A stretch of 64,000 nt of DNA from an uncultured Bacteroidota bacterium (GTDB lineage Bacteria > Bacteroidota > Bacteroidia > 2-12-FULL-35-15). This document shows positions 12,315-35,407 of this stretch, piece after piece. Where the stretch lies: positions 4,405 to 68,404 of the forward strand of contig CAIYIS010000025.1 in NCBI GenBank assembly GCA_903926385.1, given 5' to 3'. Below the pieces are notes generated by a model. That model did no database searches. It saw only the letters and a list, made by a program, of their open reading frames with translations, and was not told where the DNA came from. The stretch's first letter is position 1; the number at the start of each line of letters is the position of its first letter. A program made the position numbers and the translations under genes.

Positions 12315-12552
12315 CTTGTTTTAGCTTAAATTCCCTATAGCTTTCCAAATACAACTCATTCATCAAGGTTGCATAGAGAGCACTTAACTTTATCAGATTC
12401 TCTACACTCGGCATTGCCAGCCCCTTTTCCCATTTCGAAATTCTACTCGCAGATTTTAATCCGAGTAGTTTAGCAACTTCATTTTGTTTGTATCCCATTA
12501 ACAGCCTGTGCTTCCTTAAACTATTTTTATAACGTTTAGTTTTTTTCTTCAT
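12307..12552 (-). CDS. XRE-family (Cro/C1-type) helix-turn-helix transcriptional regulator
   Basis: LLMGYKQNEVAKLLGLKSASRISKWEKGLAMPSVENLIKLSALY is a canonical HTH_3 pattern. Immediately upstream of and co-oriented with ArdC-like copy 2. Confidence 0.7.
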   Translation of the reverse strand: MKKKTKRYKNSLRKHRLLMGYKQNEVAKLLGLKSASRISKWEKGLAMPSVENLIKLSALYATLMNELYLESYREFKLKQVT

Positions 12553-13598: not shown

Positions 13599-13645
13599 AG
13601 TTTTATATTTTAAATAGGTTTATTTATTAATAATTAAATTGTCTT

Positions 13646-14300
13646 TTATCGGTCAATATCTCTTTCTTGCTCTTCTGATTTGTCTGCCCGTAAGTCCTCT
13701 AATTCCTGTTGTCTTTCTTCGGCTTTGTTGTCGGTTGGTCCGATTTCATTGGATTTTTCTGTTTCATTTTCAATATCTTTTTCTGTTTCGATATGTTTTA
13801 ACTCATAGTAATAATGAGGCGAATGACTTTTTGTTACTGGCTCCAACTCTTTTGTTTCTTTTTAGTGGCATAGTATGGAGATGGTTTTCCTTTGGTTTGG
13901 TCTGAAAATACATTTAGACTAATTTTCTCCTTTTTCTTCTTGATTTTAACCGGCAGTTTTTTTAGTGTTTTTTCAATTCCTACAATAATTTTTGTTGCTA
14001 CATGGTGATATAGGTCAAATGGTGTCCTTATCTCCTTTCGGTTTTCTTCTTTCCCTTTCATGTTTATCTTGTTTTTGAAATGACTCTACTTTTTGTTTTT
14101 GACCTTATTTCATTTAGGGATTTTTCCCGTCTTTCTAATTCAGAAGGGCTGACCATACATTCACAGTATCCTGCATCTTCTGTTTGAATTTCGGAGTAAT
14201 AAATGCTTTCGATGTTTTCTGATTCTATTTCCTGATCGTTTTGGTAACTATTGTCTTTATTGAGTTCAGTGTCCTTGGTTTTATTTTCTTCGATTTCCAT
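13646..14300 (-). other. Three consecutive small highly charged ORFs (66, 75, 78 aa). Possibly small mobilization-associated proteins or a frameshifted remnant
   Basis: ORFs 13646..13846, 13834..14061 and 14064..14300 are head-to-tail on the minus strand between ArdC-like 2 and the relaxase. Low-complexity E/K-rich sequences with no motif. Confidence 0.25.
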
Positions 14301-14329
14301 TTTTAATTTATTTAGTTCTGATTTTTTAT

Positions 14330-15175
14330 TTATCTGCTTCTTTGGATATTTCTATTATTCATTTTTTCTCTTACTCTGTTTAATTCATTCGCTCTTGTTT
14401 TTGTCTTATTCAAATCTTGTATTCTTTCTTCTGTATATCCGAGACGATTGAAACGAAATTTGTGTTTACCGAATATGATACCTGTTGTTTTACCGCTTCT
14501 GTTGTATGTTTCAATTCCGCATTCTTTTAGTTTGTTGTAAAAATCTTCTATTGAGTTCGATGCTTTGTAACATGTTTTCAGCATTCCTATAACCTGTTCC
14601 TTTTCTGATTGCCTTCCTGTTCTTAATTTAAATTGATATTCTTTATCACTCGTTACTGCTTTTTCTTTCTTCCAATGTTCTACTACTGATTTTGATAATT
14701 CAGGATAATGTTTCTGCTGGTATTCTTGTATGTCTTTTTTGAGTTTTCTGAATTCACCTTTCGACATTCGCATGGCTTTGCCTGTGTGATATTCCAGTCC
14801 TGATGCACAAATATGAATGTGGTAATGGTTTTTATCAAAATGAGGAGCGATGACATATATTCCTTTTGGGTTTCTCCTTTGAATGTATTCCCTTGCCATT
14901 GCTTCCATCTTTTCAATGGATATATGTTTTGCATCTTCTTTGTGCCAGGAAAGTATTTCATGGGTAAGGATGACACTGTCTTTTCTTTTGTGTTTCCGGT
15001 ATGTTTCATTCTTTTTAAATTGTTTCTCCCAGCTTTCTATATTTCTTCCTTTCAGATTATGCGTTAGCATAAAGGTGTTTCCTTCTTTGTCAACTAAACG
15101 GTCTTTATCATTGGTTATGTATTCAAGTAGTTTTTTGTAGTTTGGTCTTTTATATGTTTTGACTTTGACTATCAT
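14330..15175 (-). CDS. Mobilization relaxase (MOB_P-type / Bacteroides MobB-like, PF03432)
   Basis: Histidine triad HFDKNHYHIHICAS (HxDxxxxHxH). N-terminal region MIVKVKTYKRPNYKKLLEYI is typical of the relaxase family start. Confidence 0.75.
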   Translation of the reverse strand: MIVKVKTYKRPNYKKLLEYITNDKDRLVDKEGNTFMLTHNLKGRNIESWEKQFKKNETYRKHKRKDSVILTHEILSWHKEDAKHISIEKMEAMAREYIQRRNPKGIYVIAPHFDKNHYHIHICASGLEYHTGKAMRMSKGEFRKLKKDIQEYQQKHYPELSKSVVEHWKKEKAVTSDKEYQFKLRTGRQSEKEQVIGMLKTCYKASNSIEDFYNKLKECGIETYNRSGKTTGIIFGKHKFRFNRLGYTEERIQDLNKTKTRANELNRVREKMNNRNIQRSR

Positions 15176-15647
15176 TTTTTTGTAAAGGAGGATTTCTAAA
15201 GAAATTATTGATTGCCTCTTCTAATGCGGTTATCTTCTTTTCAATTTCCTCTAGTTTTCGTTGACTCTCCCAATGATATTTTTCTTTTGGTTTTACTATG
15301 CTTTGTATCTGGTTTAAACAGTCAGAAAGGATTTGTTCTAAATACGCTATTTGCTCAGGATACGGGACAACAAAGGTCTGACTGATATAGGCAAGCACCG
15401 CCTGATGAATAAATCGGGTAATGGTCATTTTATGCCTTTCTGCCTCCCTCTGTACTTTGTCGTATTCCCCGTTATTTGAAAAATTAACGGTGAATTCGGG
15501 TTTACTTTTCCGTTGTTCCTGCTTGTATTTCAAAAGGTATTCTTTTCGATATGTCTTTTTTGCAAACTTGATTTCTTCGTCTGTTCCGTTTTCCAATACT
15601 CCTGTTGACTCCAGATATTCCCACATCTTTCCTGTTCGATTACTCAT
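15150..15647 (-). CDS. Relaxosome accessory protein (MobC/ribbon-helix-helix family)
   Basis: KMTITRFIHQAVLAYIS-type C-terminal motif. Overlaps the relaxase start by 26 bp and the T4CP end by 8 bp, suggesting a translationally coupled operon. Confidence 0.5.
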   Translation of the reverse strand: MSNRTGKMWEYLESTGVLENGTDEEIKFAKKTYRKEYLLKYKQEQRKSKPEFTVNFSNNGEYDKVQREAERHKMTITRFIHQAVLAYISQTFVVPYPEQIAYLEQILSDCLNQIQSIVKPKEKYHWESQRKLEEIEKKITALEEAINNFFRNPPLQKNDSQSQNI

Positions 15648-17085
15648 TGTCTTTCTTTTTAAGTGGTAAAATCGGTATGATCTCCATATTTGCAGATGTC
15701 TCTATTTCTTTGGGTGGAATCAAACTGTATTTTAAATAATGGCTTCGTTTGTAATATGGTTTCAGTCTTGCCATGATTGGTGGTTTGTTTCCGCAAATGA
15801 GTAATGCTCGTGTTTCTTTCATTGTTCGTATTTCATCGTTGGTCATTAAGGGTCGTACTACTTTTACTTTCTTGTCATTTTCGTATTCATATTTACCGAG
15901 TGTTTGTTCTAATTCTTTGGATGTTTCCAGTGATGTTCCTGTAAAATACATCTTAGCAAAACAGTTTGCTTTGATTGCATCTCCGTCATTTTTTCCATAG
16001 TGGTGAATGAGCTGACTGAAATCTTGTACCAAGAGCATTATTCCCGAACGGTGTTTTCTGACATTGGCAACTGCTAGTGGAAGGGTCGGAAGATTGAGTG
16101 AGGAGGCTTCATCTATTAAAAGAAAAATGTCTTTTTCATTTTGATTTGGAAAACGGGAAAGCAGAAAGGCAAAGAATTGTTCGAAGAAAAGGGACGTAAG
16201 AACGCTATAATATTTTTGATCGGCAACGGAGTTTTGAATATACAGGGCTGTTGGTTTGTCTCTGAATTCCTGTAAATTCAGATTATCCTTTGAGGTTACT
16301 TTGGCTACTGCTTCATCATTAAATATTTGAAGTGCTGCCTTACAGGTGGCAATTACTCCGCTTCTTACTTTTTCATCATAAGCAATGAAAGATTTGTATT
16401 CGGCAAATAATACCTCATCTGCATGTTTACTGAAAAGCGCATCTACTGATTCGGGATTGCCTCCTAATTGGTTTAACAGTTGTCTGACATTATATAGGTT
16501 TTGATATTGGACTTCTTGTTTCTTTAGAATGGTAATGAGCATGGCAAGTAAGGAGCTGGATTGTGTATTCCAGAAAGGGTCTTTGGTTTTACCTCCCAAA
16601 GCTGTTTCAACTAGCATGGATGCTACCTTTTGAATTTCAGAGGATGAGTTCGCACGTTGCAGTGGATTGTAACCGGAAGATTTTTCAGGTTTTGCAAAGT
16701 TTAATACTTTAATGTCATATCCTTTTTGTTGCAGGTATCCTGCACTTTTGGAAAAGAGTTCTCCCGATGGGTCGTGTATGACAAAACTTCCGTTCATAGA
16801 GTACAGGGATGGGAAAAGGACAACGCTAGATTTTCCTGTTCCTGTTCCTCCTACTATCAAGGCATTTTGGTAGGATAGCTTAATACTTAAATTCCGTGTG
16901 CCTGTTAAGCAGAAACCGAAATATCTTCGTGATAGTAATGTTCCCTGTCTTACAAATTCCGCATTGTACTCATTTTTCTTTTTAGGTATGGCTGTAATGG
17001 CAAAGGTGATGAGTTCTACTAATAGTTTGAAAAAACTTTCAAGTAGTTTGATTAATAGGGTAAAGAATTGTTCGATGATTATCAT
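15640..17085 (-). CDS. Type IV coupling protein (VirD4/TraG/MobC family ATPase)
   Basis: Walker A VGGTGTGKSS, Walker B LLIDEASSL, and a LLVQDFSQLIHHYGK motif. N-terminal TM anchor. Confidence 0.75.
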   Translation of the reverse strand: MIIIEQFFTLLIKLLESFFKLLVELITFAITAIPKKKNEYNAEFVRQGTLLSRRYFGFCLTGTRNLSIKLSYQNALIVGGTGTGKSSVVLFPSLYSMNGSFVIHDPSGELFSKSAGYLQQKGYDIKVLNFAKPEKSSGYNPLQRANSSSEIQKVASMLVETALGGKTKDPFWNTQSSSLLAMLITILKKQEVQYQNLYNVRQLLNQLGGNPESVDALFSKHADEVLFAEYKSFIAYDEKVRSGVIATCKAALQIFNDEAVAKVTSKDNLNLQEFRDKPTALYIQNSVADQKYYSVLTSLFFEQFFAFLLSRFPNQNEKDIFLLIDEASSLNLPTLPLAVANVRKHRSGIMLLVQDFSQLIHHYGKNDGDAIKANCFAKMYFTGTSLETSKELEQTLGKYEYENDKKVKVVRPLMTNDEIRTMKETRALLICGNKPPIMARLKPYYKRSHYLKYSLIPPKEIETSANMEIIPILPLKKKDNE

Positions 17086-17279
17086 TTGTATCGTGTATTA
17101 GTTGGTTTGGTAATAATGAACTGCAGGAATAGGTTGATTTGTTGTAAGGTAAGTTCTGCTAATCGCAGGACTCCCCATATACATATCACAATCAGTTTCA
17201 GGATAATTTTCAGGATGGTCCAAAGGATATTTTTCATTGTATTTTCTTTTTAAGGTTCTACTTCATTCTTTTTTGTTTT

Positions 17280-17993
17280 CTATATATTCAGGTTTGCAGA
17301 GATGGTTACGGTTGCTCCTTTATTTTGTAAAATCGTTTTGTAAAATTCAGAAGCGATTTTAAAGTCCGAATCGCTTTCAGGGTTTACGGGTTGAAAGACA
17401 AAATGTATTTCAATTCCTTTTAAATCCTGTATTTGTTGCATTTGCTCCAATTGTGTTTGTATTGACTCTGGTTTTGTTTTGAGAATCTTAATGGTCTGTT
17501 TATTATAAAAAGACAATTCCTTTGTGTTTTCCATTAAGTCGGAGTAAATAATCAATACTCTTTTTTGTGAATTACTTCGACTTAATTGGTTTAGCTTTCG
17601 TACCAATGGGAGATAGATAGAAGAGTTCCGTTTACCTATCGTGTCTTTATTACTGTTTTCAATAATTTTGGTTGCCCGATTCTTGAAATTTTTGATTTCC
17701 TTTTCTCTTTCCAGTTCATTTGATAACCATTGATTTTGTATATTAATCTTTGCTTCATTGATTGGGTTATAACTGACATCTGTAATATTCCCAAAAGAAA
17801 AGTTTGATCCATTCCATTGATTGTTTTGTAAATCAAAAAGGCTGAGAATTTCATCGGCATTTGGTTTGGCTATACTCTTTTCGGTGACATCTCTCAATAC
17901 AACGATTTCAGTTGTGGTTGGTTTTACGGATGTGCAGGACACAATGAACATTATTGCTATTAGTGTGATAATGATTATGGATGTAGTTTTCAT
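17280..17993 (-). CDS. Lipoprotein of unknown function (element cargo)
   Basis: Signal peptide plus lipobox MKTTSIIIITLIAIMFIVSCTS. No catalytic motif. Confidence 0.45.
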   Translation of the reverse strand: MKTTSIIIITLIAIMFIVSCTSVKPTTTEIVVLRDVTEKSIAKPNADEILSLFDLQNNQWNGSNFSFGNITDVSYNPINEAKINIQNQWLSNELEREKEIKNFKNRATKIIENSNKDTIGKRNSSIYLPLVRKLNQLSRSNSQKRVLIIYSDLMENTKELSFYNKQTIKILKTKPESIQTQLEQMQQIQDLKGIEIHFVFQPVNPESDSDFKIASEFYKTILQNKGATVTISANLNI

Positions 17994-18003
17994 TTTTGTT
18001 TTA

Positions 18004-19059
18004 TTAAAAGGTTATAGTGATAATGTCAGGTTCTGAGACTTGTTGTGAAAAGCATTCGGGTATAATTTTGTCTGTACGGTACATCAGGTTTGTTGATTTG
18101 AATATTTCTAAGGTTTCAAAATACATTTTACGTATTCTGTCATTCGCTGAATTGGCATAGTGAATTACTCGAAGTCTGTCCTTGGTTCTTTCTAAAACCG
18201 TTTTCTTGATTTCTTGTCTCTCCTGTTTTAGTTTACCTATCTCTTTCTTCCGTTTATTAATTCTTTTTAGTGTTAATAGATGCTGTGTGTTTTGTTTTAT
18301 TTCAGTCCATGTCGGAAGGATGAAGAAGGATAGAAAAGCTGAAACGATAAAGAAGAAGAGGTTTACTACAACAAAATAGGACGGGTTGATATGTACTTCA
18401 TGGTCGGCTAGGTATTCTGATCTGAATATGGCCAGTACAGAAAATACGATTGTTACAAAGGTTAGACAACCGAAAAGTATAAGTCTTCTTTGTAGGGTTG
18501 TTTTCGCTCCTTTATACAAAAAGGTGGAAAAATGGGCGAATGCTAACACGGCTACTGATACTGAAAAGGAAAGGATAAGGGCAAACAACATGCTTTCTCC
18601 TGTAACTTGAAATGCTTTTGTATTAAATATGATTTCTCCTAAGGTGACGATAAGGGACAGAATTCCTGCCCAAATCATTCTTTTTACGATACTGCCATGA
18701 TTAAAATTTCCCATTTCGTATTCATCGTTTCGGTTGTTGTCTTCTCTGACCTTTATCTCATTTTCAAGGTTTTTGTCCTTTTCCTTAAAAAAGTCCGCAT
18801 CCATTTTGGCTTCCGGGAAATGTGCCTCCGGTTGTAAATAATGCATTACCTCACTTGCGAGTTTTTCATACCCCGCTTTTATCTCTCCTGTGTAATGTGA
18901 AATGTTATCACTTTCAGGTGCTGGTAGATTTTGCCTCGCAAAATGTTTTGCATTTTTCCTTGTTTGTTCTTTTAGTTCAGAATCTCTTTTCTGAATCATT
19001 TCTTCCAATACTGTATCTTGGATACTGCCGGAAGCAATTGTGATTGCTTTAGTGTTCAT
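18004..19059 (-). CDS. Membrane protein with central TM bundle and C-terminal coiled coil, unknown function
   Basis: 351-aa ORF with ~4 TM helices (aa ~120-250) followed by a K/E-rich helix. Last gene before the element end. Confidence 0.4.
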   Translation of the reverse strand: MNTKAITIASGSIQDTVLEEMIQKRDSELKEQTRKNAKHFARQNLPAPESDNISHYTGEIKAGYEKLASEVMHYLQPEAHFPEAKMDADFFKEKDKNLENEIKVREDNNRNDEYEMGNFNHGSIVKRMIWAGILSLIVTLGEIIFNTKAFQVTGESMLFALILSFSVSVAVLAFAHFSTFLYKGAKTTLQRRLILFGCLTFVTIVFSVLAIFRSEYLADHEVHINPSYFVVVNLFFFIVSAFLSFFILPTWTEIKQNTQHLLTLKRINKRKKEIGKLKQERQEIKKTVLERTKDRLRVIHYANSANDRIRKMYFETLEIFKSTNLMYRTDKIIPECFSQQVSEPDIITITF

Positions 19060-20472: not shown

Positions 20473-23469
20473 ATGATGAAAAAACAAAGAATTATTCTAT
20501 TACTTTTTTGTGCTTTCACTCTCCTATTGTGTGTTCCTAAAACATTTGCCCAATCTTATTATTTCAGAAATTATTCTGTTGAAGATGGCTTGCCTTTCAT
20601 TGAGGCTTCCGTAATTTTTCAGGATATGAATGGTAACTTGTGGTCGGGAGGTTATGGGGGATTGAGTAAATTTGACGGAGTTCAGTTTACTAATTACTCT
20701 CCTAAAGACGGCTTATTAAACCACCTTGTAACAACCATAAACGAAGACAATTCAGGAAATTTATGGATAGGAACCATAAGCGGTATCAATAAATTTGATG
20801 GTAATAAATTTACCAGTTATACCACCAAAGATGGATTGCCTAGTAACACCATTTCTTGTATTCTCAAGGCCATAAACGGAGATTTGTGGATTGGTACAGA
20901 CAAAGGGTTAAGCCGTTTCAGTGAGGAGGTGTTTACAAATTATTCAGTAAAAAACGGATTGGAAAATGCTGATATCCGTTCGCTTTATCAAGATAAAAAA
21001 GGCACTATTTGGATTGGGACTTCTTGCGGAATCAGCTATTACAATGGAAATAAGTTTGAAAGTAATGATGCCGTTGTTTCCTTTTTTAAATCTTCCGAAA
21101 GTAATGAAGCCAATATAATTAATGGGTTTTCGGAAGACGAGCAGGCCATGTGGATAGCAACTGAAAAGGGATTGCTGAAATGTGTGACAGATGCAACGGG
21201 GATAAAAAAATATACTTCCATAGAACAATGTTGGAACAAAAGTTTAAGTTCGGCACTTGTGGATGCAAGAAATACGATTTGGCTGGGTACAGAAAAAGGA
21301 CTAATAAAATATGACCGCAATACTATTTCGAAATTATCTATACGCATAACACAAAACAGTAACATTGTTCATTGTTTGTTTCAGGATTATGAGAACAATT
21401 TATGGATTGGTACTTCTGCAGGATTATTTAAGTACAGAGGAAATCCATTTATCAGCTTTGGGCTTAATGATGGTTTAACCAATAATTTTATTCATGGTTT
21501 AAAACGAGATTCACATGGCAATTTATGGGTAGGTTCTCAAAGTGGTTTGTTTAAATACAGCAATCATCAGTTTACTAATTACGATGAAGTAGATGTAAAA
21601 AAAGGAACAAACATTAATGACATTCTGGAGGTGGATTCGAAAACGCTATGGCTAGCCACTAACAAAGGTTTAATGACTTATGACGATGGCTTTTTTATTC
21701 GTAAACTAAAACCAAAAGGAGAAGGAGTTTATAAAAATCCAATCAACACATTTTTTAAAGATTCGAAGTCGAATATATGGATAGCGGGCAATAATGAAGT
21801 GTATAAATATGACGGGAAAGAATTTATCCACTATACATTTAAAAGCAGGAGCGAAAACTATCAGGCTTGGTGCTTTGTGGAGGACAGACAGGGAAACATC
21901 TGGATTGGCACTTATCTGGGAGGTTTGATAAAATATGACGGGAAAACTTTTACCGAATGTTCTGAACAATTAGGTTTTGGAAACGATTCTTTCCTTACTT
22001 CAATTATTGACAAAGAAGGTAACATTTATTTCGGCTGTTTAAATGGGGTGTGGATGTATAACCCATCTGCTCCGGCTAACAAACCAATAAATTTCAGCAA
22101 GGCTGATGGTATGAGTTCTGACTTGGTGTACTCGCTTACGTTTGGAAAAAGAGAAGATGTAATATGGGCAGGAACCAATCAGGGGTTGAATCAGATTGAC
22201 ATTGCCGGGTATAAAAAGAACGGCCAGAAAAATATTATTCCTTTCGGCAAACAGGAAGGTTTTACAGGAGTGGAATGCAATTCGAACGGAACATGGGTGG
22301 ACGCTGATGGTTCCATTTGGTTTGGCACTGTTTACGGATTAATAAAATACGACCCGAATGAATACATCGAAAACAAAATGGAATCGAAAATCAGTATTAC
22401 CGGTTTCAGTTTGTTTTACAACGACACTGTTTTAAAAAACAATGTTCATTTGGGATACAGTGACAATAACATTACGTTTAATTTTTCAGGAATATGTCTG
22501 ACCAACCCCGGAAAGGTGAAGTACTCATATATTCTGGAAGGCTCACAAAAAATCTGGTCGCCACCATCGGGCGAACGCACCACCAATTATTCCAATCTCC
22601 CTCCCGGAACATATACTTTTAAAGTAATCAGTACAAACAACGAAAATGTATGGAACAAAACTCCGGCAACATTTACATTTACCATCGAACGTCCGTATTG
22701 GAAAACATGGTGGTTTAACACCATTCTGTTTGCCTCTCTGTTTATTTCCATTTTCATTTATTTCAGAGTACGCATTCACAATATTAAACTGAGAGAGAAA
22801 CAAAAAACAGAATTGAACAAGAAGATTGCCAACATTGAATCGCAGGCGCTGCGCTCTCAAATGAATCCTCATTTTATATTCAACACACTTGCCTCTATTC
22901 AAGATTATATTCAGGATAACGACAGCGAATCGGCATTGAGGTATCTTACCAAATTTGCGCAACTGATGCGGAAAATTATGGAGAACTCCAAACAGCAACT
23001 CATCACCATAGCCGAAGAAGTGAATGCTTTGAAACTTTATTTGGAGCTGGAAGTAATGCGATTTAAAAAGAAATTTGAATACCATATTAATATAGACGCA
23101 AACATAGATGCAAACTACGACCAAATTCCGTCAATGCTTATTCAGCCTTATGTTGAAAATGCTATTAAACACGGATTGCTGCCGAAAGAAGGAAACGGGA
23201 AACTGGAAATAACGCTGGAAAGGAATGATGATACCATACAATGTATTATAGAAGATAACGGAGTGGGGCGCAAAAAATCGATGGAGTCGAAACGCAACCA
23301 TATCCATCAGCACAAATCGATGGGGATGAACATTACTCAAGAACGATTAACCATTTTAAATTCGAGTTTGAAGAGTAATATTTATGTTGAGATAATCGAT
23401 TTGTATGAAAACGGTGAAGCGGCCGGAACAAAAGTGAAATTGATAATTCCGCTCGAAACAAATGAATAA
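20473..23469 (+). CDS. Sensor histidine kinase: signal peptide, periplasmic two-component-regulator beta-propeller/Y_Y_Y repeats, TM, LytS-type His_kinase + HATPase
   Basis: Repeated NxWIGT/GLxxFDG propeller blades. TM WWFNTILFASLFISIFIYF. The QMNPHFIFNTLASIQ motif is the PF06580 LytS/YehU signature. C-terminal ATPase G-boxes. Confidence 0.75.
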   Translation: MMKKQRIILLLFCAFTLLLCVPKTFAQSYYFRNYSVEDGLPFIEASVIFQDMNGNLWSGGYGGLSKFDGVQFTNYSPKDGLLNHLVTTINEDNSGNLWIGTISGINKFDGNKFTSYTTKDGLPSNTISCILKAINGDLWIGTDKGLSRFSEEVFTNYSVKNGLENADIRSLYQDKKGTIWIGTSCGISYYNGNKFESNDAVVSFFKSSESNEANIINGFSEDEQAMWIATEKGLLKCVTDATGIKKYTSIEQCWNKSLSSALVDARNTIWLGTEKGLIKYDRNTISKLSIRITQNSNIVHCLFQDYENNLWIGTSAGLFKYRGNPFISFGLNDGLTNNFIHGLKRDSHGNLWVGSQSGLFKYSNHQFTNYDEVDVKKGTNINDILEVDSKTLWLATNKGLMTYDDGFFIRKLKPKGEGVYKNPINTFFKDSKSNIWIAGNNEVYKYDGKEFIHYTFKSRSENYQAWCFVEDRQGNIWIGTYLGGLIKYDGKTFTECSEQLGFGNDSFLTSIIDKEGNIYFGCLNGVWMYNPSAPANKPINFSKADGMSSDLVYSLTFGKREDVIWAGTNQGLNQIDIAGYKKNGQKNIIPFGKQEGFTGVECNSNGTWVDADGSIWFGTVYGLIKYDPNEYIENKMESKISITGFSLFYNDTVLKNNVHLGYSDNNITFNFSGICLTNPGKVKYSYILEGSQKIWSPPSGERTTNYSNLPPGTYTFKVISTNNENVWNKTPATFTFTIERPYWKTWWFNTILFASLFISIFIYFRVRIHNIKLREKQKTELNKKIANIESQALRSQMNPHFIFNTLASIQDYIQDNDSESALRYLTKFAQLMRKIMENSKQQLITIAEEVNALKLYLELEVMRFKKKFEYHINIDANIDANYDQIPSMLIQPYVENAIKHGLLPKEGNGKLEITLERNDDTIQCIIEDNGVGRKKSMESKRNHIHQHKSMGMNITQERLTILNSSLKSNIYVEIIDLYENGEAAGTKVKLIIPLETNE

Positions 23470-23513
23470 TATTTTAGATTTGTAGTTTCATAACCGGTAA
23501 TGTTTTTTTAAAT

Positions 23514-24263
23514 ATGATAAAAGCTATAATAATAGATGACGAGAAAGGCGCCCGTGAGTCTTTATCTAAAATGATAGAAAAATACTGCCCTGAAATAAGA
23601 GTGGTAGAAAAAGCAGACTGTATGAAAGCCGCACTCGAGGCTATCGAACTTTACGAACCTCAACTTATTTTTCTGGATATTGAAATGCCCAACGGAAATG
23701 CCTTCGATTTGCTCGAAAAGGTGCGCGATATCAATTTTGAAATAATTTTCACTACCGCTTATGATCATTATGCCATAAAAGCCATAAAATTCAGCGCCAT
23801 TGATTACATTCTAAAACCCATAGACCCCGAAGAACTGGTACTGGCTGTAAACCGCTTGCAAAGTAAGGTGAATCAGAAGGAGGTTATGAAACAAAAGTAC
23901 GATACCCTGATAGGCAATATGAAACCCGGAAGCAAATCAAAAAAAATAGGCTTGCTCGATGGCGATTCGTACGTGTTTGTTGATATTTCCACCATCATTC
24001 GGTGCGAATCTTCGAATAACTTTACCATTTTTTTCTTCACCGATGGAAGAGAATTGGTGGTAACCCGCACTATGGGCGATTTTGAGCAGCTACTCACCGA
24101 TGATGATTTTATGCGGGTTCACCGTTCTCACCTTATCAATTTTAATCATATCAAAAAATTTATTCGTGGCGAAAATGCGTACGTTATTATGGACGATAAT
24201 GCCGAAGTTGAAGTGTCGCGAAGAGGAAGAATGGACATTTTAGACAGAATTTCCAGAGGGTGA
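23514..24263 (+). CDS. LytTR-family response regulator (REC + LytTR DNA-binding domain)
   Basis: MIKAIIIDDE...FLDIEMP is the receiver domain. C-terminal VHRSHLINFNHIKKF is the LytTR signature. Immediately downstream of the LytS-type kinase. Confidence 0.85.
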   Translation: MIKAIIIDDEKGARESLSKMIEKYCPEIRVVEKADCMKAALEAIELYEPQLIFLDIEMPNGNAFDLLEKVRDINFEIIFTTAYDHYAIKAIKFSAIDYILKPIDPEELVLAVNRLQSKVNQKEVMKQKYDTLIGNMKPGSKSKKIGLLDGDSYVFVDISTIIRCESSNNFTIFFFTDGRELVVTRTMGDFEQLLTDDDFMRVHRSHLINFNHIKKFIRGENAYVIMDDNAEVEVSRRGRMDILDRISRG

Positions 24264-24267
24264 CCTA

Positions 24268-24330
24268 CCATTCACCCTGCCAAAAGTACCATTCACACCC
24301 CCTAAAGTACCAAATTCTAAAAGTGCCCCC
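24268..24330 (+). repeat. Repeat element copy A (CCATTCACCCTGCCAAAAGTACCATTCACACCCCC + degenerate third unit), starting 5 bp after the LytTR gene stop
   Basis: 35/35 identity with 28527-28561. Internal 9-bp direct repeats AAAGTACCA-12 bp-AAAGTACCA, and a further AAAGTGCCC. Confidence 0.75.
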
Positions 24331-25098
24331 TTTTTTATTTTTTTCCTCGGTAAATTTGTGCCAGAAATAGCAATCAATTAAAATTTAATCCGATTCTGTT
24401 TTTTTATCAGATTTTATCCTGATAAGTTCTTTGAAAAGAAAAATAAGTAAGAAGGGTTGGCAATTCGTTCTTTTTTTGATTTACTGCATGGGGATGTTGT
24501 ATCAAAAATCAATTCGGCCCTTCCCTTATTTTTTTCGACTCGAAAAAAGTTTAACAATTAATAAATAGAAATCATGAACAGAAAAATCGCATCCATCCGC
24601 AGGCACTATTTCCGCAAAGAGGAGGTAGGAACTGGAACCATTTTGTTGGCTATTGCCACAGTAATTATTATCTTTTTAAGTATTTATAACGCATAGTTGT
24701 TTGTTTAGTTAGTAGTTTGTTTGGTTGTTCAGAGGCGGTATTCATAAGAATATCGCCTTTGTTTTTTTACCGCAATTCCGAAATTCGCCTCCTATTTTCC
24801 TATTTTTCACCATAAATTAAACGCTTTTTATAAATGATTTAACTGTTTTGGATAATTCTTTTATCCGTTTTGGATAAATGTTATAGACGTTTTGTTTATG
24901 ATTTTGTGAGTATGTTTCAATAAATTGATTTAACGGCCATTTGGCGAAAACCTTTTCTATGCCTTAAAAACGTTTCCGAACTCAAAAAGACTACCCAAAA
25001 AAAGGTGTCCTTTTTATAAAAAATGCTTTGTAACCACGTTTTTTAGTACTTTCGCCTTCCATTTATAATTCATCATTTATCATCAATAATTTATTGTC

Positions 25099-26847
25099 AT
25101 GTTACGTACACACACTTGCGGAGAATTAAGAATAACTAATGTTTCACAAACGGTTACCATAAGCGGATGGGTGCAGGGAGTGCGCGACAAAGGCTCCTTA
25201 CTTTGGATTGACTTGCGCGACCGTTACGGAATTACACAAATAACCATCGAAACCGAAAATGCCGATAAAGCAGTTGTTGATAAGGCTCGTTCGTTGGGTC
25301 GCGAATATGTAATCAGTGTTACCGGAAAGGTAAACGAACGGTATTCCAAATCGGATAAAATTCCTACCGGTGATGTGGAAATAACTCCCGAAAAGATTGT
25401 AATTCTCAATACCTCCATCACTCCACCTTTTACCATCGAAGATGATACTGACGGAGGTGACGATATTCGAATGAAATATCGTTACATCGATTTGCGAAGA
25501 AATGCAGTACGTAAAAACCTGGAACTTCGCCACCGAATGGCTATCGAAACCAGATTATATCTTGATAAATTAAGTTTTCTGGAAGTAGAAACACCCGTAC
25601 TTATTAAATCTACTCCCGAAGGAGCCCGCGATTTTGTGGTGCCATCGCGTATGAATCAGGGTGAGTTTTATGCCTTGCCTCAATCGCCTCAAACATTTAA
25701 ACAACTACTGATGGTAGGAGGTTTCGACCGTTATTATCAAATTGTAAAGTGTTTTAGAGATGAAGATTTACGTGCCGACCGTCAGCCCGAGTTTACCCAA
25801 ATAGATTGCGAAATGGCTTTTGTGGAGCAGGAAGATATTTTGAATACCTTCGAAGGATTGATTCGTCATTTATTCAAAAGCGTGAAAGGTATTGATATTC
25901 CTGCGCTATCGCGAATGACCTATGCTGATGCCATGAAATTTTATGGAAACGACAAACCGGACATCCGTTTTGAAATGAAATTTGTGGAATTAAACGACAT
26001 TGTAAAAGGCAAGAGTTTTAAAGTGTTTGACAATGCCGGCTTGGTGGTTGGTATATGTGCCAAAGGTGCTGCCGAATATACCCGCAAGCAACTGGACGAG
26101 TTGACCGAATTTGTGAAACGCCCTCAGATAGGCGCTACCGGCTTGGTGTATGCCCGCTACAACGTAGACGGAACCATAAAATCATCCGTAGATAAATTTT
26201 ATAACGAAGAAGAATTGAAAAAATGGGCAGCTGCATTCAATGCTCAGCCCGGAGACCTTATACTATTGCTTGCCGGAGAAGAACACAAAACCCGCAAAGC
26301 TCTTTCCGAATTGCGTTTGGAAATGGGCAACCGACTTGGCTTACGCGATAAAAACACCTTTGCCTGCCATTGGGTAATCGATTTTCCTTTGCTCGAATTT
26401 AACGATGAGCTCAATCGCTGGTATGCCATGCATCATCCGTTTACTTCACCAAAACCGGAAGATATTCCAATGTTAACCTCCAATCCTGGCACAGTAAGAG
26501 CGAATGCTTACGACATGGTGATAAACGGAGTGGAAGTAGGTGGTGGTTCCATTCGTATTTTCAACAAACAATTACAATCGCAAATGTTCGATTTACTAGG
26601 CTTTTCGAAAGAAGACGCTCAGGCTCAATTTGGATTTTTGATGAATGCCTTCGAATTTGGCGCTCCTCCTCACGGTGGTATTGCCTTCGGATTCGACCGT
26701 TTATGCTCGCTTTTTGGCGGAGCCGAAGTAATCCGCGATTTTATTGCTTTCCCTAAAAACAATTCGGGACGCGATGTAATGATCGATTCACCTTCGCCTA
26801 TTGCACAAGCACAATTGGATGAGTTAGGTATTGGTTTGAAAAAATAA
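25099..26847 (+). CDS. aspS: Aspartate--tRNA ligase
   Basis: N-terminus [11 protein letters not shown], class II motifs [17 protein letters not shown] and GGSIR..., and full length 582 aa. Confidence 0.95.
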
Positions 26848-26857
26848 GGAAGATTAC

Positions 26858-27460
26858 TTAATATTTAAGTTCAATCTTAACACTGTCATTAAGTGTTTTC
26901 GGGGTAGGAAGTTCGTTCGCACCTAAAGGTAATTCTGTAAACGATTCTATCAACTTTATCATGTCTTTCTCGTATTTCTCTTTATTATCGGCCCTTGTCC
27001 ATACAAGAATTTGGTAAAAAGTATAAGGAGTTTCCAAAACAGCAAGTTTATAAAACACTTCTGTTTGATCTACTTTACCCGAAATGTCGGCTACCAATGC
27101 CTTATTTCCATTAATGGTTTCCCTTCCTGGAATACTAATCTTTCCGTTTTTTATCGTTTCGATGAAGCCCTGAGAAGCAATGTTATTAAAGTATAAATCC
27201 ACATTGTAATTCATATCAAAATTAGCCATGGTCTTCTTTTTTTCTTCTATCACTATGGCGTAAATATCTTTTTCAGTATTCAGATATTGCAGAGAAGCAT
27301 CCTTATGCAGGTCGGCACAGGGGTGAAGATAATCGGGCATAAGAATAGTATAACGGTTATTAATTTTAACCTCTGTAAAAACAGCATCACGATGGCACGA
27401 TACCAAAAACACCAGCAGGCTCATTGAAAAAACAAATTTCTTTACCATAGTCAGTCTCAA
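26858..27460 (-). CDS. Lipoprotein of unknown function
   Basis: Signal peptide and Cys (MVKKFVFSMSLLVFLVSCHRD). 200 aa. Confidence 0.4.
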   Translation of the reverse strand: MRLTMVKKFVFSMSLLVFLVSCHRDAVFTEVKINNRYTILMPDYLHPCADLHKDASLQYLNTEKDIYAIVIEEKKKTMANFDMNYNVDLYFNNIASQGFIETIKNGKISIPGRETINGNKALVADISGKVDQTEVFYKLAVLETPYTFYQILVWTRADNKEKYEKDMIKLIESFTELPLGANELPTPKTLNDSVKIELKY

Positions 27461-27658
27461 AATAGTTGAACAAAGAACTTAATTTTTTTTGTCAAAAAAA
27501 AATAAAACACCTGACGTAAGGATAATTTTGTCAAAAAAGGAATGATTTTGTTGAACGAGAAACGAAAAAATCAGTGCAACAGAAATTATATTGAATATCG
27601 ATGACTTCTGCACCATACGATATTCAGTATAATAGATAAAGATTTTGTAAAAATTAAT

Positions 27659-28399
27659 TTACTCTTTCTTTCGTCTTGCAATTTCCTTTCTGCGCATTTC
27701 GGCTTTGTAATCTTTGGTAGTGATAATCACAAGCCCCCCAGTACAATCACCATATTCAGCCGGCACACCTCCGGTGAGAACTATCATTTCGCTTATCCCT
27801 ATGCCCGGAACTGTTGCAGTACCTATCACTCGGTTTCCATCCACATAATACGCATTCGTTCCTCGTCTGGAACCGCGCATATACAAATCTTTTCCATCTT
27901 CTGTAGGTTGCACATCTGGCGAAATAGCAGTTGCTATTTTCACAATATCTGTACTGCCCGAAGCCAAATGGTCTATCTGGTCTATCGAAATGATTTGCAT
28001 GGCAGAAAAATTATTGTCCACAATAGGTTTTACCCAGGCATCGGCAAACACTTCTGTGCCGCCTAACTCAGTTGTGCCGGTGGTCATTTTCCAGTAAACA
28101 TACGATGTAATATTGGGGCTTACTTCCACACTATTTACTAGCATCGTCTTGAATCCGATAAACGAGAATTTAAGATTATACATTCCGGGAGTGAGTAGCC
28201 GAAACGTAAAGTCACCATTATTATCGGTAGATATAGCCGAAATAAGAGTGGAGTCTTCCATCAGTGCAACTGTAACCATGGGCAGATTTCCTCCTTTATC
28301 ATCGGTAATGGTTCCTTTAATAGTTCCTGATACTTGTGCTGAGAGCAGAGTTGACATGCTTAATGCCATTAATACTGCCATTTGTTTTAGATTTTTCAT
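27659..28399 (-). CDS. Truncated TonB-dependent-receptor-like protein: carboxypeptidase-regulatory-like domain + plug only (no beta-barrel)
   Basis: Start moved to MKNLKQMAVLMALSMSTLLSAQ (signal peptide). The track ORF begins 52 codons upstream. SGTIKGTITDDKGGNLPMVTVAL matches the CarbopepD_reg fold. A plug-like C-terminus ends GGLVIITTKDYK. Confidence 0.5.
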   Translation of the reverse strand: MKNLKQMAVLMALSMSTLLSAQVSGTIKGTITDDKGGNLPMVTVALMEDSTLISAISTDNNGDFTFRLLTPGMYNLKFSFIGFKTMLVNSVEVSPNITSYVYWKMTTGTTELGGTEVFADAWVKPIVDNNFSAMQIISIDQIDHLASGSTDIVKIATAISPDVQPTEDGKDLYMRGSRRGTNAYYVDGNRVIGTATVPGIGISEMIVLTGGVPAEYGDCTGGLVIITTKDYKAEMRRKEIARRKKE

Positions 28400-28526
28400 A
28401 TTGATTTTTGTTTTAGTGAAACGATTCTTTATATCTAAGACAAACTGAAAAGCAAATTCCATAAAATAATTTGTTAAATCTTTCATTTTTTCTGCAAACA
28501 ACATCCAATTCTTAAAAACACAATTG

Positions 28527-28576
28527 CCATTCACCCTGCCAAAAGTACCATTCACACCCCCAAAAGTGCCGAATTC
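28527..28576 (+). repeat. Repeat element copy B in the divergent promoter region between the plug-like gene and the ECF sigma gene
   Basis: CCATTCACCCTGCCAAAAGTACCATTCACACCCCC is identical to copy A, followed by AAAAGTGCCGAATTC. Confidence 0.75.
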
Positions 28577-28687
28577 AAGATTTGGTCGGCTAGGAGAAAA
28601 TAAATGTAGTATAACTTTATGGAAAGAGACCTCTAAGATTGTCTTACTAATAGAGACCCGTTTCCGTAACTAATAAAATATTCGGCT

Positions 28688-29260
28688 ATGAGTTATTCAG
28701 AAATCAATTTCAGCAAGCTTAGCGATAGCGAGCTACTGGAGAATTACAAACAAACACACGATAAGAAGGTGATTGGCGAACTTTATAAACGTTACACTCA
28801 CTTAATTTTGGGTATGTGTATTAATTTTTATAGAGATAGAGACGATGCAGAGGATGCATTGCTCCAGATTTTCGAACAGTTAATGGAAGACCTGAAAAAG
28901 CATGAAGTAAATTGTTTTAAAGCCTGGCTAATTTGCAAAGTAAAAAATTATTGTCTGAACGACTTAAGGTGTAAAGATTTTCAGAATCTGGCAATGCAGC
29001 AATTCCAACAATTTGTCAGCACAGATGTTTCGGAACCCGACAATGAGTTGCTCGATAAAAAGGAAAATATGTTAGAACGCCTCCATAAGTCGATTCATGA
29101 ATTAAATGATTTTCAAAAAAAATGTATTGAATTGTATTACCTGCAAAATAAATCCTATGCCCAAATTGTTGCTATAACAGGCTATTCCCTCAAGGAAGTG
29201 AAAAGCTATTTGCAAAACGGAAAACGTAATTTGAAATTAATATTGTTAAATAATAAATAA
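28688..29260 (+). CDS. RNA polymerase sigma-70 factor, ECF subfamily
   Basis: Region 2 (ELYKRYTHLILGMCINFYRDRDDAEDALLQIF) and region 4 HTH (LYYLQNKSYAQIVAITGYSLKEVKSYL). Confidence 0.75.
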   Translation: MSYSEINFSKLSDSELLENYKQTHDKKVIGELYKRYTHLILGMCINFYRDRDDAEDALLQIFEQLMEDLKKHEVNCFKAWLICKVKNYCLNDLRCKDFQNLAMQQFQQFVSTDVSEPDNELLDKKENMLERLHKSIHELNDFQKKCIELYYLQNKSYAQIVAITGYSLKEVKSYLQNGKRNLKLILLNNK

Positions 29261-29270
29261 ATCATCCCCA

Positions 29271-30362
29271 ATGAAAAATTCATATCATCATTCAGAATGC
29301 CTGTCGTACGAGCAATTAAAACAGTATTGCGAAGGCTCATTAGAAACAGAAATTAAACAAGAAATTTACACCCATCTTTCGGGATGTGCATTATGCGCCT
29401 CGGCCGTAAACGGTTTTGTGGCTATTCCTTTTTCAAGAAAAGACATTCAGCGTTTAAATAATAAACTGGACACAAAAATCAATTCAGCTCCTAATCATTA
29501 TCACTTGCCTGTTGCAGAGGTTTTATTGGCAGGTATCTTAATGCTGTTTGGTTTCGGTTATTTTGTTTTTGTAAATCAAAAAGAAGAAATAAAACCACAA
29601 TTGGCTGCTTTAGAAACTCACGAAAAGAAAATGGTAAGACCTACTATGGTTCCAACGCATGAGTCAATTAATAGAGATACGATAAACTACAATCAAATTA
29701 CTCAAAATGTAAGTGCGCCATCTCAACACAACATAGAGGTGACTTCAGTGGACAGTATTACACCTGAAAAACTTCCAACTCCTGCAATTTTCAATTGTGA
29801 GGCTTTTAATGTTGCCGATGCTGTGCAGAACATCACTCGTTCGTCCATCACCGATGAGGTTACATTTATTGAAGATTTAAAAGTACTCGACTTCAGCCAA
29901 ATTTATTTTTGTAAGTCGAATGTTCTAACTGAATCTACAGACAATTTGCCTGCATCAAAAGAAAACAGAATGATGGCAACAGATGATTTTTCGAAGGAAG
30001 ATGGTCAACGAATGATTGCATGGCAAGTTCTCAAAACAAGTTTGCATTATTTCAAAAAACAAAATTATTTGGAAGCCAATACTGGTTTCCAGCTATTGCT
30101 TGATAAAAATGCAAACGATGTGAATGCCTTATTTTATAGTGGCATTTGTTGCGCAGAACAGGGTAATTTCCGTTTAGCGGTTATACGATTAAGTACTGTG
30201 TTAAGTTATCCTAACCCTCAGTTTAGGGAAGAAGCGAATTGGAAATTAGCATTAACGTATAAGAAATTTGGAGATAATGAAAATGCAAAACAACTATTCA
30301 GAGAAATAGCTGCATCCAAAGGGTTTTATGCAGAGCGAGCGAAACAGCAATTGGATAAATAA
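29271..30362 (+). CDS. Anti-sigma factor (zinc-finger HxxxCxxC N-domain, single TM, C-terminal TPR-like periplasmic domain)
   Basis: HLSGCALCASAV is the ZAS-type motif. TM LLAGILMLFGFGYFVFV. It starts 11 bp after the ECF sigma gene stop. Confidence 0.55.
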   Translation: MKNSYHHSECLSYEQLKQYCEGSLETEIKQEIYTHLSGCALCASAVNGFVAIPFSRKDIQRLNNKLDTKINSAPNHYHLPVAEVLLAGILMLFGFGYFVFVNQKEEIKPQLAALETHEKKMVRPTMVPTHESINRDTINYNQITQNVSAPSQHNIEVTSVDSITPEKLPTPAIFNCEAFNVADAVQNITRSSITDEVTFIEDLKVLDFSQIYFCKSNVLTESTDNLPASKENRMMATDDFSKEDGQRMIAWQVLKTSLHYFKKQNYLEANTGFQLLLDKNANDVNALFYSGICCAEQGNFRLAVIRLSTVLSYPNPQFREEANWKLALTYKKFGDNENAKQLFREIAASKGFYAERAKQQLDK

Positions 30363-34339: not shown

Positions 34340-35077
34340 ATGAAAAAATTAAAAATAGGAATCGTAGAAGATGAAATGATTATTGCTAATGTGCTCGAAG
34401 AAATGCTGACTGCAGTAGGATACGAGGTAACCGAATTTGCTTGTCGGTACAGCGAAGCCATAACAATGATTGAAAACGAAAAGCCTGATTTGCTTTTGCT
34501 CGATATCAATTTGCTCGGACAAAAGAACGGTATTGATGTGGCCGAAACAGTGCGCAGTAAGTACGACATCCCTTTTATTTTTCTTACCGCCAACTTGGAT
34601 AACAAAACCATTGAACAGGCAAAACAAGTGAAGCCCTCTGCATACCTTGTTAAACCAGTTACCAAAGAGCAATTGTATTCAGCCATAGAAATTGCATTCA
34701 GTAATTATAATGACGAAAACAGAATTTTGCCAACTGTGGCTTCTGCACACCCGCAAGCGGTTCACGACTTTATATTTATTAAAGATGGATACGTTTTCAG
34801 AAAAATATTCTTTAAAGACATTCTGTATCTCGAGAGTGATGCCAATTATGTAACCATTCATCTTGAAAACGGAAAAAAACTAATGGCTCGATTCACGATG
34901 AATGATTTTCTGGAACAAATAGACCAAAAAATATTTGTGCGCATTCATCGTAGTTTTGTGGTAAACTTTACCATGATTGAAAATGTTTTTCCAAGCGAAG
35001 TTTCGGTGAAAGGCACAATGGTGGCCATTGGCAAGAGTTATAAAGACGACCTAATGAAATTGCTCGGCTTAAATTAA
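34340..35077 (+). CDS. LytTR-family response regulator
   Basis: REC domain (KIGIVEDEMI...LLLDINL) and LytTR domain (VRIHRSFVVNFTMIENV). Immediately downstream of the TPR kinase. Confidence 0.85.
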   Translation: MKKLKIGIVEDEMIIANVLEEMLTAVGYEVTEFACRYSEAITMIENEKPDLLLLDINLLGQKNGIDVAETVRSKYDIPFIFLTANLDNKTIEQAKQVKPSAYLVKPVTKEQLYSAIEIAFSNYNDENRILPTVASAHPQAVHDFIFIKDGYVFRKIFFKDILYLESDANYVTIHLENGKKLMARFTMNDFLEQIDQKIFVRIHRSFVVNFTMIENVFPSEVSVKGTMVAIGKSYKDDLMKLLGLN

Positions 35078-35212
35078 ACCCCATTTCACTTTTGCTCATC
35101 CATTAAAGTCAAACACATTTCATCCCTAACCTGATGCATTATGTCCCTAACCTGCATCATTCATCCCTTTTCTTTTATCAATAAGAATTAACTAAGGTTC
35201 TTTGCAACCGTA

Positions 35213-35407
35213 ATGTTAATAGATGATATCTCAAAAATAGAACTGAAGAAAAACACTTTGGGCGCTTTATGCCCAAAGTGTGGGAACGATTTGGTGCCGA
35301 TAAAGACTACATCAACAAAAAAGATCATTCAGATTTTTACGCTGGGCTCTGCTAAAATGCATCATTACCGGTGCGAAAACTGTAATACCAATTTTAATTT
35401 ATTCTAA
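35213..35407 (+). CDS. Small zinc-ribbon protein (two CxxC pairs)
   Basis: CPKCGNDL ... CENCNT. 64 aa. Could be a spurious ORF. Confidence 0.3.
   Translation: MLIDDISKIELKKNTLGALCPKCGNDLVPIKTTSTKKIIQIFTLGSAKMHHYRCENCNTNFNLF

Follow-up and report, generated by a model that had tools for sequence, protein, structure and literature searches.

Introduction

What does a 35-bp element do when it occurs twice, letter for letter, within a few kilobases of a bacterial chromosome? This question is raised by a 64-kb stretch of DNA (64,000 nucleotides, hereafter the window) on contig CAIYIS010000025.1 of an uncultured Bacteroidota bacterium. One copy of the element (site A) lies just past the gene of a response regulator with REC and LytTR domains (PF00072 and PF04397 in Pfam; 23514..24263, + strand), here designated RR1. 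The other copy (site B) lies upstream of an extracytoplasmic function (ECF) sigma factor gene. According to reviews, a LytTR site is a pair of imperfect direct repeats, each of 8-13 bp (or 9-11 nt), with ~12 (11-13) nt between them, and this spacing is critical (PMC4064291, PMC4847170). The element has at least two imperfect direct repeats of 8-13 bp, a fixed spacer in the range of 11-13 nt, and a linked LytTR gene. A first-pass annotation of the window had proposed a LytTR-type operator of direct repeats in 21-bp phase. This proposal gains support from the same array at the orthologous A and B positions, from the spacing to promoter boxes of the -7 type, and from half-sites that resemble those of Escherichia coli BtsR. 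In this study, the sequence, phasing, conservation, position, and synteny of the repeat units were recorded directly, and from these we infer that both copies are probably three-unit operators for RR1, the partner of the sensor kinase HK1.

Sequence and extent of the duplicated element

The 35-mer CCATTCACCCTGCCAAAAGTACCATTCACACCCCC is present in exactly two copies in the window, at 24268-24302 and 28527-28561, both on the + strand. Exact and mismatch searches agreed with the earlier statement that the copies starting at 24268 and 28527 are identical, and no third copy was found in the window at up to 3 mismatches, nor any in 100 shuffles (0 expected). The similarity extends over 24268-24317 and 28527-28576, where 47/50 nt (94%) are identical; the 60-nt flanks of the two copies share 25% and 30% identity, which is the random level. 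The duplicated tract starts at the first repeat unit and stops at the last one. A 21-bp period was reported at both copies by Tandem Repeats Finder.

Putative operator A (24268..24317, + strand) comprises the units CCATTCAC (24268-24275), CCATTCAC (24289-24296), and CCAAATTC (24310-24317), and putative operator B (28527..28576, + strand) comprises CCATTCAC (28527-28534), CCATTCAC (28548-28555), and CCGAATTC (28569-28576), all in 21-bp phase. The consensus of the third unit in the two window copies is CC(A/G)AATTC. The first-pass annotation had described a 9-bp repeat with a 12-bp spacer. Its 21-bp phase holds, but the unit had to be redrawn, because the part conserved across species is CCATTCAC with a 13-nt spacer and not AAAGTACCA with a 12-nt spacer. 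The refined recognition unit is the 8-mer [CT]C[AG][CT]T[TCA]A[AC] followed by a 13-nt spacer. Likewise, the degenerate third unit AAAGTGCC that had been proposed is in phase in copy B (28563) but out of phase in copy A (24320), where it lies 16 nt past the previous AAAGTACC; the in-phase third unit of copy A is CCAAATTC at 24310.

When the window was scanned with a score for unit pairs, the maximal pair score (24) was reached at two sites only. Folding of both strands revealed no inverted repeat or hairpin-forming sequence in the element: copy A had a minimum free energy of 0 kcal/mol on both strands, and copy B did not fold better than shuffles. The pattern AAAGTRCC-N13-AAAGTRCC was also considered as the recognition pattern and was discarded. 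Outside the two copies it had only 3-mismatch matches (5, versus ~2 that chance would give for the whole pattern), and it is not kept in orthologs.

Conservation of site A

Loci orthologous to site A were collected by a metagenome scan with the regulator protein and by look-ups of closer homologs, which yielded 12 further non-identical loci besides the window (loci and contigs are designated by L numbers). The gene order AIR-synthase-like gene, kinase, regulator, small open reading frame (ORF) is conserved in this set, with regulator identities of 58-72%. Three phased units follow the RR1-ortholog gene in all 13 non-identical loci. The array stands directly after the regulator stop in most of them and ~100-450 nt downstream in L013, L018, and L019. 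The spacing is 21 bp (occasionally 20) between the first two units and 20 or 21 bp thereafter. For instance, the units read CCACTTAA / CCACTAAA / CCATTTAC in L009, CCGCTTAC / CCGCTAAA / CCATTTAC in L019, and CCGTTTAA / TCGTTCAC / TCAAACTC in L222. Across the 16 tabulated sites, position 2 of the first and second units is always C (16/16) and position 5 always T (16/16); position 7 is A in 15/16 first and 16/16 second units (31/32). The spacer sequences vary between clades, and the invariant positions fall within the 8-mer. Downstream of the A-site -7 box, the orthologs carry a conserved leader and then the small ORF, whose product is 49-77% identical over 37-42 aligned residues in 13 orthologous loci. 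As judged from these alignments, the pattern at site A is the phylogenetic footprint of a putative protein-binding site tied to the regulator gene and the small-ORF promoter.

In the strain-level contigs L001-L007 and L226, both sites are identical save for one spacer substitution in L007; these contigs are uninformative on constraint because they are near-identical to the window. Among 63 distant paralog loci, 13/63 had a phased repeat in the 220 nt that follow the regulator gene, compared with 8.5% in control windows. Given this weak signal, a downstream phased repeat is not claimed as a general rule.

Two further observations concern this set of loci. In L214, a single-base difference in an A run, with A6 in place of the A7 that would keep the frame open, breaks the small-ORF ortholog (7050-7175); it is due to an assembly error or else to a genuine frameshift. 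When L214, L218, and L222 were compared with the window, the kinase and the regulator were 64-73% identical and the flanking AIR-synthase-like protein and AspS 82-93%. The two-component pair evolves at a much higher rate than the genes beside it, and the operator units change along with it.

Conservation of site B and origin of the pair

The first-pass annotation had placed copy B in the divergent region between a plug-like gene and an ECF sigma operon, and the gene context is as described: copy B sits between a Plug gene on the - strand (27659-28399) and the ECF sigma gene on the + strand (28688-29260). Only eight homologs of the partner protein encoded next to the sigma factor (29271-30362) were found below E 1e-10. 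L208 and L211, in which the partner or anti-sigma protein is 48% and 44% identical, keep the module of Plug (-), ECF sigma (+), and partner (+) genes at another chromosomal location, between COX15 and DUF1003 genes. The units upstream of the sigma factor gene are CCGTTTAA / TCGCTCAC / TCGTTCAC in L208 and CCATTCAC / TCATTCAC / CCGTATTC in L211. These arrays have a 21/20-21-bp phase and end up 43-44 nt before the conserved GTATAACTTTATGG.

In close relatives of the window (AIR-synthase-like protein and AspS 82-93% identical), site A, the small ORF, aspS, and a 200-aa gene occur in the order of the window with no ECF module alongside. In relatives, the two sites thus occupy different loci, each with a phased array of its own. 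This makes A and B old elements, independent of each other, of two predicted promoters, and excludes an origin as att sites or as a target duplication. Window A is 94% identical to window B and 74% identical to the L211 B site, but only 48-68% identical to the orthologous A sites. That window A is closer to B sites than to its own orthologs suggests that the short tract was homogenised after the two sites had been juxtaposed. Only in the window lineage did a rearrangement place A and B 4.26 kb apart in the same orientation, and the full 50 nt of both, spacers included, would then have been homogenised, probably by gene conversion. If so, the near-identity of A and B would be a small, clean example of the homogenisation of operators within one regulon.

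Position relative to predicted promoters

In flavobacteria, the sigma-A -7 box has the consensus TAnnTTTG and spans -12 to -5 (PMC9723704). A perfect match, the predicted -7 box TAAATTTG of the small-ORF unit (24351..24358, + strand), lies 41 nt past the start of unit 3 of site A. The distance is the same in L009, and TAATATTG, TAAAATTG, TACACTTG, or TATAATTG is found at the aligned position in orthologs. At site B, the predicted -7-like box TAACTTTA of the ECF sigma operon (28612..28619, + strand) lies 43 nt past the start of unit 3, and the block GTATAACTTTATGGAA at this promoter is kept in L208 and L211 (GTATAAGTTTATGG). The predicted -7-like box TTATTTTA of the divergent Plug gene (28462..28469, - strand) is within a block conserved in three species. 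The sequence ATTCCATAAAATAATTTGTTAAATCTTT is common to the window, L208, and L211, and the conserved block on the Plug side, which reads TTATTTTATGGAAT on the minus strand, is probably the promoter of the Plug gene.

Each copy of the element precedes a conserved, predicted box of the -7 type by 41-43 nt, and with respect to the + strand gene that follows, the two arrays point the same way. If the -7 box is taken as -12 to -5, the unit centres would be at about -50, -71, and -92 at both predicted promoters. A scan for sigma-70 promoters (TTGACA/TATAAT) performed no better than on shuffles, as expected for Bacteroidota, and no recognisable -33 element was found at either predicted promoter.

Specificity and copy number

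In 186 kb of related loci, searched on both strands, no pair scored 23-24 except those of sites A and B and two more, each of them at a promoter. Both extra pairs precede genes that encode large secreted proteins with propeller repeats; the distance to the start codon is 91 nt in L011 and 293 nt in L013. In distant paralogous LytTR systems, the same kind of pair is located 84-92 nt upstream of the systems' own kinase genes (L035, L075), and L073 carries the same pair. A collection of genomes was also scanned with CCATTCAC-N13-CCATTCAC; among the matches listed, L137, L152, and L157 have the pair beside LytTR two-component genes. The first-pass annotation had named a high-copy repeat resembling repetitive extragenic palindromic (REP) sequences as the finding that would overturn its proposal. 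No such repeat was seen in the DNA covered: the element has 2 copies in the 64 kb, strong sites at promoters only in the 186 kb, and no hairpin potential.

Heptanucleotide microsatellites also match the pair pattern, because 21 = 3 x 7. Among the matches listed (L088-L207), microsatellites of CCATTCA, CTATTCA, and CGATTCA were seen in many unrelated genomes, including those of Acidobacteriota, Mesorhizobium, Chitinophagaceae, and Pyrinomonadaceae, often as two inverted arrays 50-200 nt apart.

Comparison with characterised systems

The site oligonucleotide of E. coli YehT (BtsR) in the yjiY (btsT) promoter has the arrangement CCGCTCAA-20-CCGCTTAC-21-CCACTCAG (PMC4847170). We located this oligonucleotide in the intergenic region upstream of btsT, where it ends 132 nt before the start codon. 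The E. coli 8-mers fall within the consensus of the window, and CCGCTTAC is unit 1 of L019. The BtsR consensus is reportedly ACC[G/A]CT[C/T]A with a 13-bp spacer, as given by Kraxenberger et al. in 2012; the window units match a half-site of this type with a 13-nt spacer. The two systems are alike in having a regulator with REC and LytTR domains, a kinase with a LytS-type His_kinase domain (PF06580), and three direct 8-bp units of the same family at 20/21-bp spacing upstream of the target gene. The match in unit sequence and spacing suggests that the element would work like a BtsR operator at the DNA level.

In other respects the systems differ. BtsS is a LytS-type membrane pyruvate sensor and btsT encodes a CstA-family pyruvate transporter, whereas the sensor in the window is a large kinase with a periplasmic double propeller and a Y_Y_Y domain. 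In the window, the gene of a 40-aa membrane peptide and an ECF sigma operon are the proposed targets, in place of the btsT of E. coli, and the system belongs to Bacteroidota, with promoters of the -7 box type. Because the sensor domain and the targets differ, the pair is not an ortholog of BtsS/BtsR. The element is most likely a LytTR operator with the BtsR type of half-site, an ordinary kind of operator that is not surprising in principle.

The Gram-positive LytTR operators (AgrA P2/P3, ComE, PlnC/D, and VirR boxes) have a similar build: imperfect direct repeats, 8-13 bp long and with ~12 bp between them, precede the promoters that are activated, and the spacing is critical (PMC4064291, PMC4847170). 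They differ in half-site sequence and belong to peptide quorum-sensing circuits that usually autoregulate their own operon. In contrast, the window has no site before the kinase-regulator operon, and the third unit is conserved. Of the systems in which a small membrane protein is controlled by a response regulator, MgrB is activated by PhoP and acts on PhoQ. The 40-aa product has no sequence relation to MgrB, but both are very small single-helix membrane proteins whose genes are apparently under direct response-regulator control, as proposed for the window. By analogy, the 40-aa peptide might exert feedback on the kinase in the MgrB/PhoQ style. PorX of Porphyromonas gingivalis is not known to be a LytTR regulator and reportedly acts by contact with SigP, not through an operator ahead of the sigma factor gene; in the window, a transcriptional link is proposed. 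PorXY-SigP resembles the window in having a two-component system atop an ECF sigma factor in Bacteroidota (cited in PMC9723704). Full-text literature searches returned no paper characterising this propeller-kinase/LytTR system of Bacteroidota or its DNA sites.

RR1 and the second LytTR regulator

The window encodes two LytTR regulators, in agreement with the first-pass annotation: RR1 (23514-24263) and RR2 (34340-35077), the latter likewise with REC and LytTR domains and with its own kinase in the segment 32299-35077. RR1 is the obvious candidate binder because its linkage to site A is invariant. Its partner kinase HK1 (20473..23469, + strand) has Reg_prop propellers, Y_Y_Y, a LytS-type His_kinase domain (PF06580), and HATPase_c, and the kinase and regulator genes are kept in synteny. 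Over its full length, RR1 shares 30% identity with E. coli BtsR (E 3e-26); for RR2 the identity is 21% (E 2e-8).

A separate phased repeat (35123-35172) was found 46 nt past the RR2 stop. In it, TCCCTAACCTG occurs at 35123 and, after a step of 21 bp, again at 35144, and a further step of 20 bp leads to TCCCTTTTC at 35164; a 64-aa zinc-ribbon-like ORF (35213-35407) follows the repeat. In L229, which encodes an RR2 ortholog of 63% identity, TCCCTAAA-20-TCCCATTT (3786-3816) and the small zinc-ribbon ORF (40% identity, E 3e-12) are kept. This repeat is probably a second, distinct LytTR operator. Because RR2 has a conserved repeat of its own, the two regulators seem to use distinct operators that parallel each other. 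TCCCTAAC, the putative half-site of RR2, is one position off the RR1-site consensus, and the half-sites differ mainly at position 3.

Weighing of the explanations

Several points weigh against the assignment of both copies as three-unit RR1 operators. The promoters and start sites are predicted from the consensus alone, and the proximal unit would be centred near -50. The third window units, CCAAATTC and CCGAATTC, match the consensus poorly, and the working site may therefore hold two units only. A triple-unit score of at least 31 with the degenerate consensus was reached in ~1/3 of shuffles and does not separate the sites; the perfect pair score (24) and conservation are the sole discriminators. 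Identity of the spacers is not needed for binding and requires a second assumption, that of recent conversion. Ahead of the operon that encodes the kinase and the regulator no site was found, and autoregulation as in L035, L073, and L075 is hence not evident here. The genome-collection scan was swamped by (CCATTCA)n, and copies were thus counted in the 64-kb window and the 186 kb of related loci only. Binding by RR1, activation, the transcription starts, and the conversion event are all inferred.

Among other explanations, the sites could be LytTR operators that are bound not by RR1 but by RR2 or by a paralog encoded elsewhere. The genes of the two LytTR regulators share a stretch of 11 kb, LytTR paralogs are many in Bacteroidota (752 RR1-like and 1272 RR2-like proteins pass the thresholds), and TCCCTAAC is close enough to the consensus, at one position's distance, for cross-recognition to be possible. 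However, site A lies downstream of RR1 orthologs in 13/13 non-identical loci, RR2 has its own phased repeat (TCCCTAACCTG twice and TCCCTTTTC) that is kept in L229, and the half-sites match those of BtsR, of which RR1 and not RR2 is the closer relative. We regard a binder other than RR1 as improbable. A similarly small chance is given to the idea that the phased repeats are a promoter-upstream element for a factor outside the LytTR family, or a structural element such as phased A-tracts that bend DNA. The spacers are partly conserved within the window clade (CCC..AAA before each unit), which would suit bending or another protein, but across clades the invariant positions are in the 8-mer and not in the spacers. 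Moreover, the 8-mer and the spacing equal those of a characterised LytTR site, the linkage to a LytTR gene is kept in more than 13 loci, and the pair is also found ahead of the LytTR operons of paralogous systems.

Explanations that deny the sites a regulatory role fare worse. Recombination scars, either att sites or a target duplication around the 4.26-kb segment, would account for 35-50-bp direct repeats in the same orientation that bracket the small ORF, aspS, the 200-aa gene, and the Plug gene, with relaxase, coupling protein, and ArdC genes 5-10 kb upstream; dispersed repeats of the REP type or like miniature inverted-repeat transposable elements (MITEs) can be set beside them, as the copy counts cover the 64-kb window and the 186 kb of related loci. 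Yet relatives hold site A without a nearby ECF module and site B between COX15 and DUF1003, so that each site predates the juxtaposition, and the bracketed block includes the housekeeping gene aspS in conserved synteny. There is also no inverted repeat or hairpin, and beyond the 2 copies in 64 kb the element occurs in the related loci at promoters only. This origin is very unlikely. A neutral, recent local duplication without function, which the spacer identity might suggest, is hardly credible, since homologous phased arrays stand at both positions in species whose neighbouring proteins are 44-72% identical and the copied tract coincides exactly with the three units.

Proposed function of the two putative operators

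Under the preferred assignment to RR1, the periplasmic propeller domains of HK1 would sense a signal, and RR1 would become phosphorylated. Phosphorylated RR1 dimers or oligomers would then occupy the phased units; as 21 bp correspond to two helical turns, all LytTR domains bound to an array would be on the same side of the helix. Both promoters would be weak, with a -7 box only, and RR1 may act there by recruiting RNA polymerase or by stabilising it. The output of promoter A would be a structured leader of ~210 nt, the 40-aa membrane peptide, and a terminator. Promoter B would deliver the ECF sigma/partner operon as a second regulatory tier, and the divergent Plug gene is possibly a third output. 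With RR1 sites at both promoters, a single sensor would turn on both a small membrane protein and, as a second tier, a sigma cascade. A bolder version combines all of these elements: a propeller kinase and a BtsR-like RR1 that directly drive both the 40-aa peptide, with a new class of structured-leader RNA, and the ECF cascade, from two operators kept identical by gene conversion. We consider this full combination possible but rather doubtful.

LytTR regulators are abundant in Bacteroidota, and the locus offers a concrete, testable operator with an 8-bp half-site, a 21-bp phase, and three units. The half-site type would be shared with E. coli BtsR across phyla. A first regulon can be predicted for a widespread propeller-kinase/LytTR pair, namely the conserved 40-aa membrane peptide and the ECF sigma operon, and the motif can serve directly in genome scans across Bacteroidota that look for further members. 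The current understanding of LytTR regulators is not overturned by these findings.

Small-ORF unit and its leader hairpin

The first-pass annotation had located copy A just past the stop of the LytTR regulator gene and upstream of a small hydrophobic ORF and aspS, which is the gene context that we found; the TGA stop of RR1 ends 4 nt ahead of copy A. The ORF had been given as 43 aa, and its actual length is 40 aa (24574..24696, + strand). The product, MNRKIASIRRHYFRKEEVGTGTILLAIATVIIIFLSIYNA, has a basic N-terminus and one hydrophobic helix, and its gene is the proposed target of operator A. It is called as a gene in L004 and L222, and no Pfam family was found for it. An intrinsic-terminator-like hairpin with a T run closes the unit (24730..24771, hairpin 24730-24761, + strand). 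The leader of ~210 nt, the 40-aa ORF, and the terminator make up a self-contained small transcription unit before aspS (25099-26847).

The predicted 5' leader contains a long hairpin (24451..24523, + strand) with the apex CAUGGGGAUGUUG at 24487-24499. This apex is invariant in all leader copies found except L214 (CUGUGGGGAUGUC), and the stems differ by clade (GAAGGG / CCCUUC in the window, GGUGU.GG / CC.ACACC in L009, and GUGAAAGAG / CUCUUUCAC in L214). The apex CAUGGGGAUGUUG also occurs on unrelated, co-varying stems, in the 5' leaders at L013:9175 (hairpin 9148-9210) and L014:9378 (9350-9416), and after a gene for a type IX secretion system (T9SS) cargo protein at L014:12389 (12361-12423). 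The folding z-scores of apex-bearing hairpins elsewhere are -5.7 and -6.2. A covariance model was built from nine leaders with single folds, since MAFFT and RNAalifold on mixed copies did not align the stems. The model recovers the window copy weakly (20.9 bits, E 0.16), together with L222 and L218. In its alignment, 94.5% of cells are paired, versus 34-54% with the partners slid, and five pairs have double-sided changes, versus 1.8 in shuffles; because the alignment was fitted to the model, the covariation support is moderate. An Rfam search of 23400-29400 at E<=1 gave no match. The leader hairpin is a candidate for an undescribed RNA motif; if this is true, it would be a new class of cis-regulatory or protein-binding RNA.

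Other features of the window

The divergent gene at operator B (27659..28399, - strand) encodes a CarboxypepD_reg and Plug-like protein by Pfam, its orthologs align from residue 1 of the start, and it may be a second target of this operator. The ECF sigma factor gene (28688..29260, + strand; Sigma70_r2 and Sigma70_r4_2) is the proposed target, and its module is conserved in L208 and L211. It is predicted to be co-transcribed with the gene of a 363-aa putative anti-sigma or partner protein (29271..30362, + strand), which has weak, below-cutoff matches to tetratricopeptide repeats (TPR).

Past the small-ORF terminator and ~200 nt upstream of aspS, the 22-bp unit ATAAATGATTTAACCGTTTTGG is repeated three times (24830-24894). 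Genes for a relaxase, a coupling protein of the type IV secretion system (T4SS; TraG/TrwB-like), and ArdC/MPTase-PolyVal are present at ~13514-19059 (L001:1-5546), just upstream of the AIR-synthase-like gene. They suggest an integrated conjugative or mobilisable element that borders the locus; strain L002 has glyoxalase and HAD genes in place of the mobile-element genes. In the analysis, the taxonomic placement was drawn from the labels of homologs (Bacteroidetes/Bacteroidia) and from T9SS/Gld genes in neighbouring loci. Five 42-bp (14-codon) tandem repeats at 36479-36772 are inside an ORF (35937-36869, - strand) for a 310-aa protein with a weak C-terminal winged-helix match.

Long arrays with a 21-bp period were seen twice in the clade. 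In the window, 13 copies of TATACTAGTCT, some of them degenerate, alternate between 20- and 21-bp spacing at 51016-51291 and take up the intergenic space that separates a PHO4 phosphate-transporter gene (51550-53202, - strand) from yceD (50011-50544), plsX, and fabH (- strand). The array resembles a set of iterons or a phased operator of great length. The second case is L228:5200-5520, beside an RR2 ortholog (74% identity), where ~15 tandem 21-bp units ATAACTATACTYCACATTGCG lie upstream of the gene of a T9SS-secreted leucine-rich repeat (LRR) protein; both arrays have a TATACT core.

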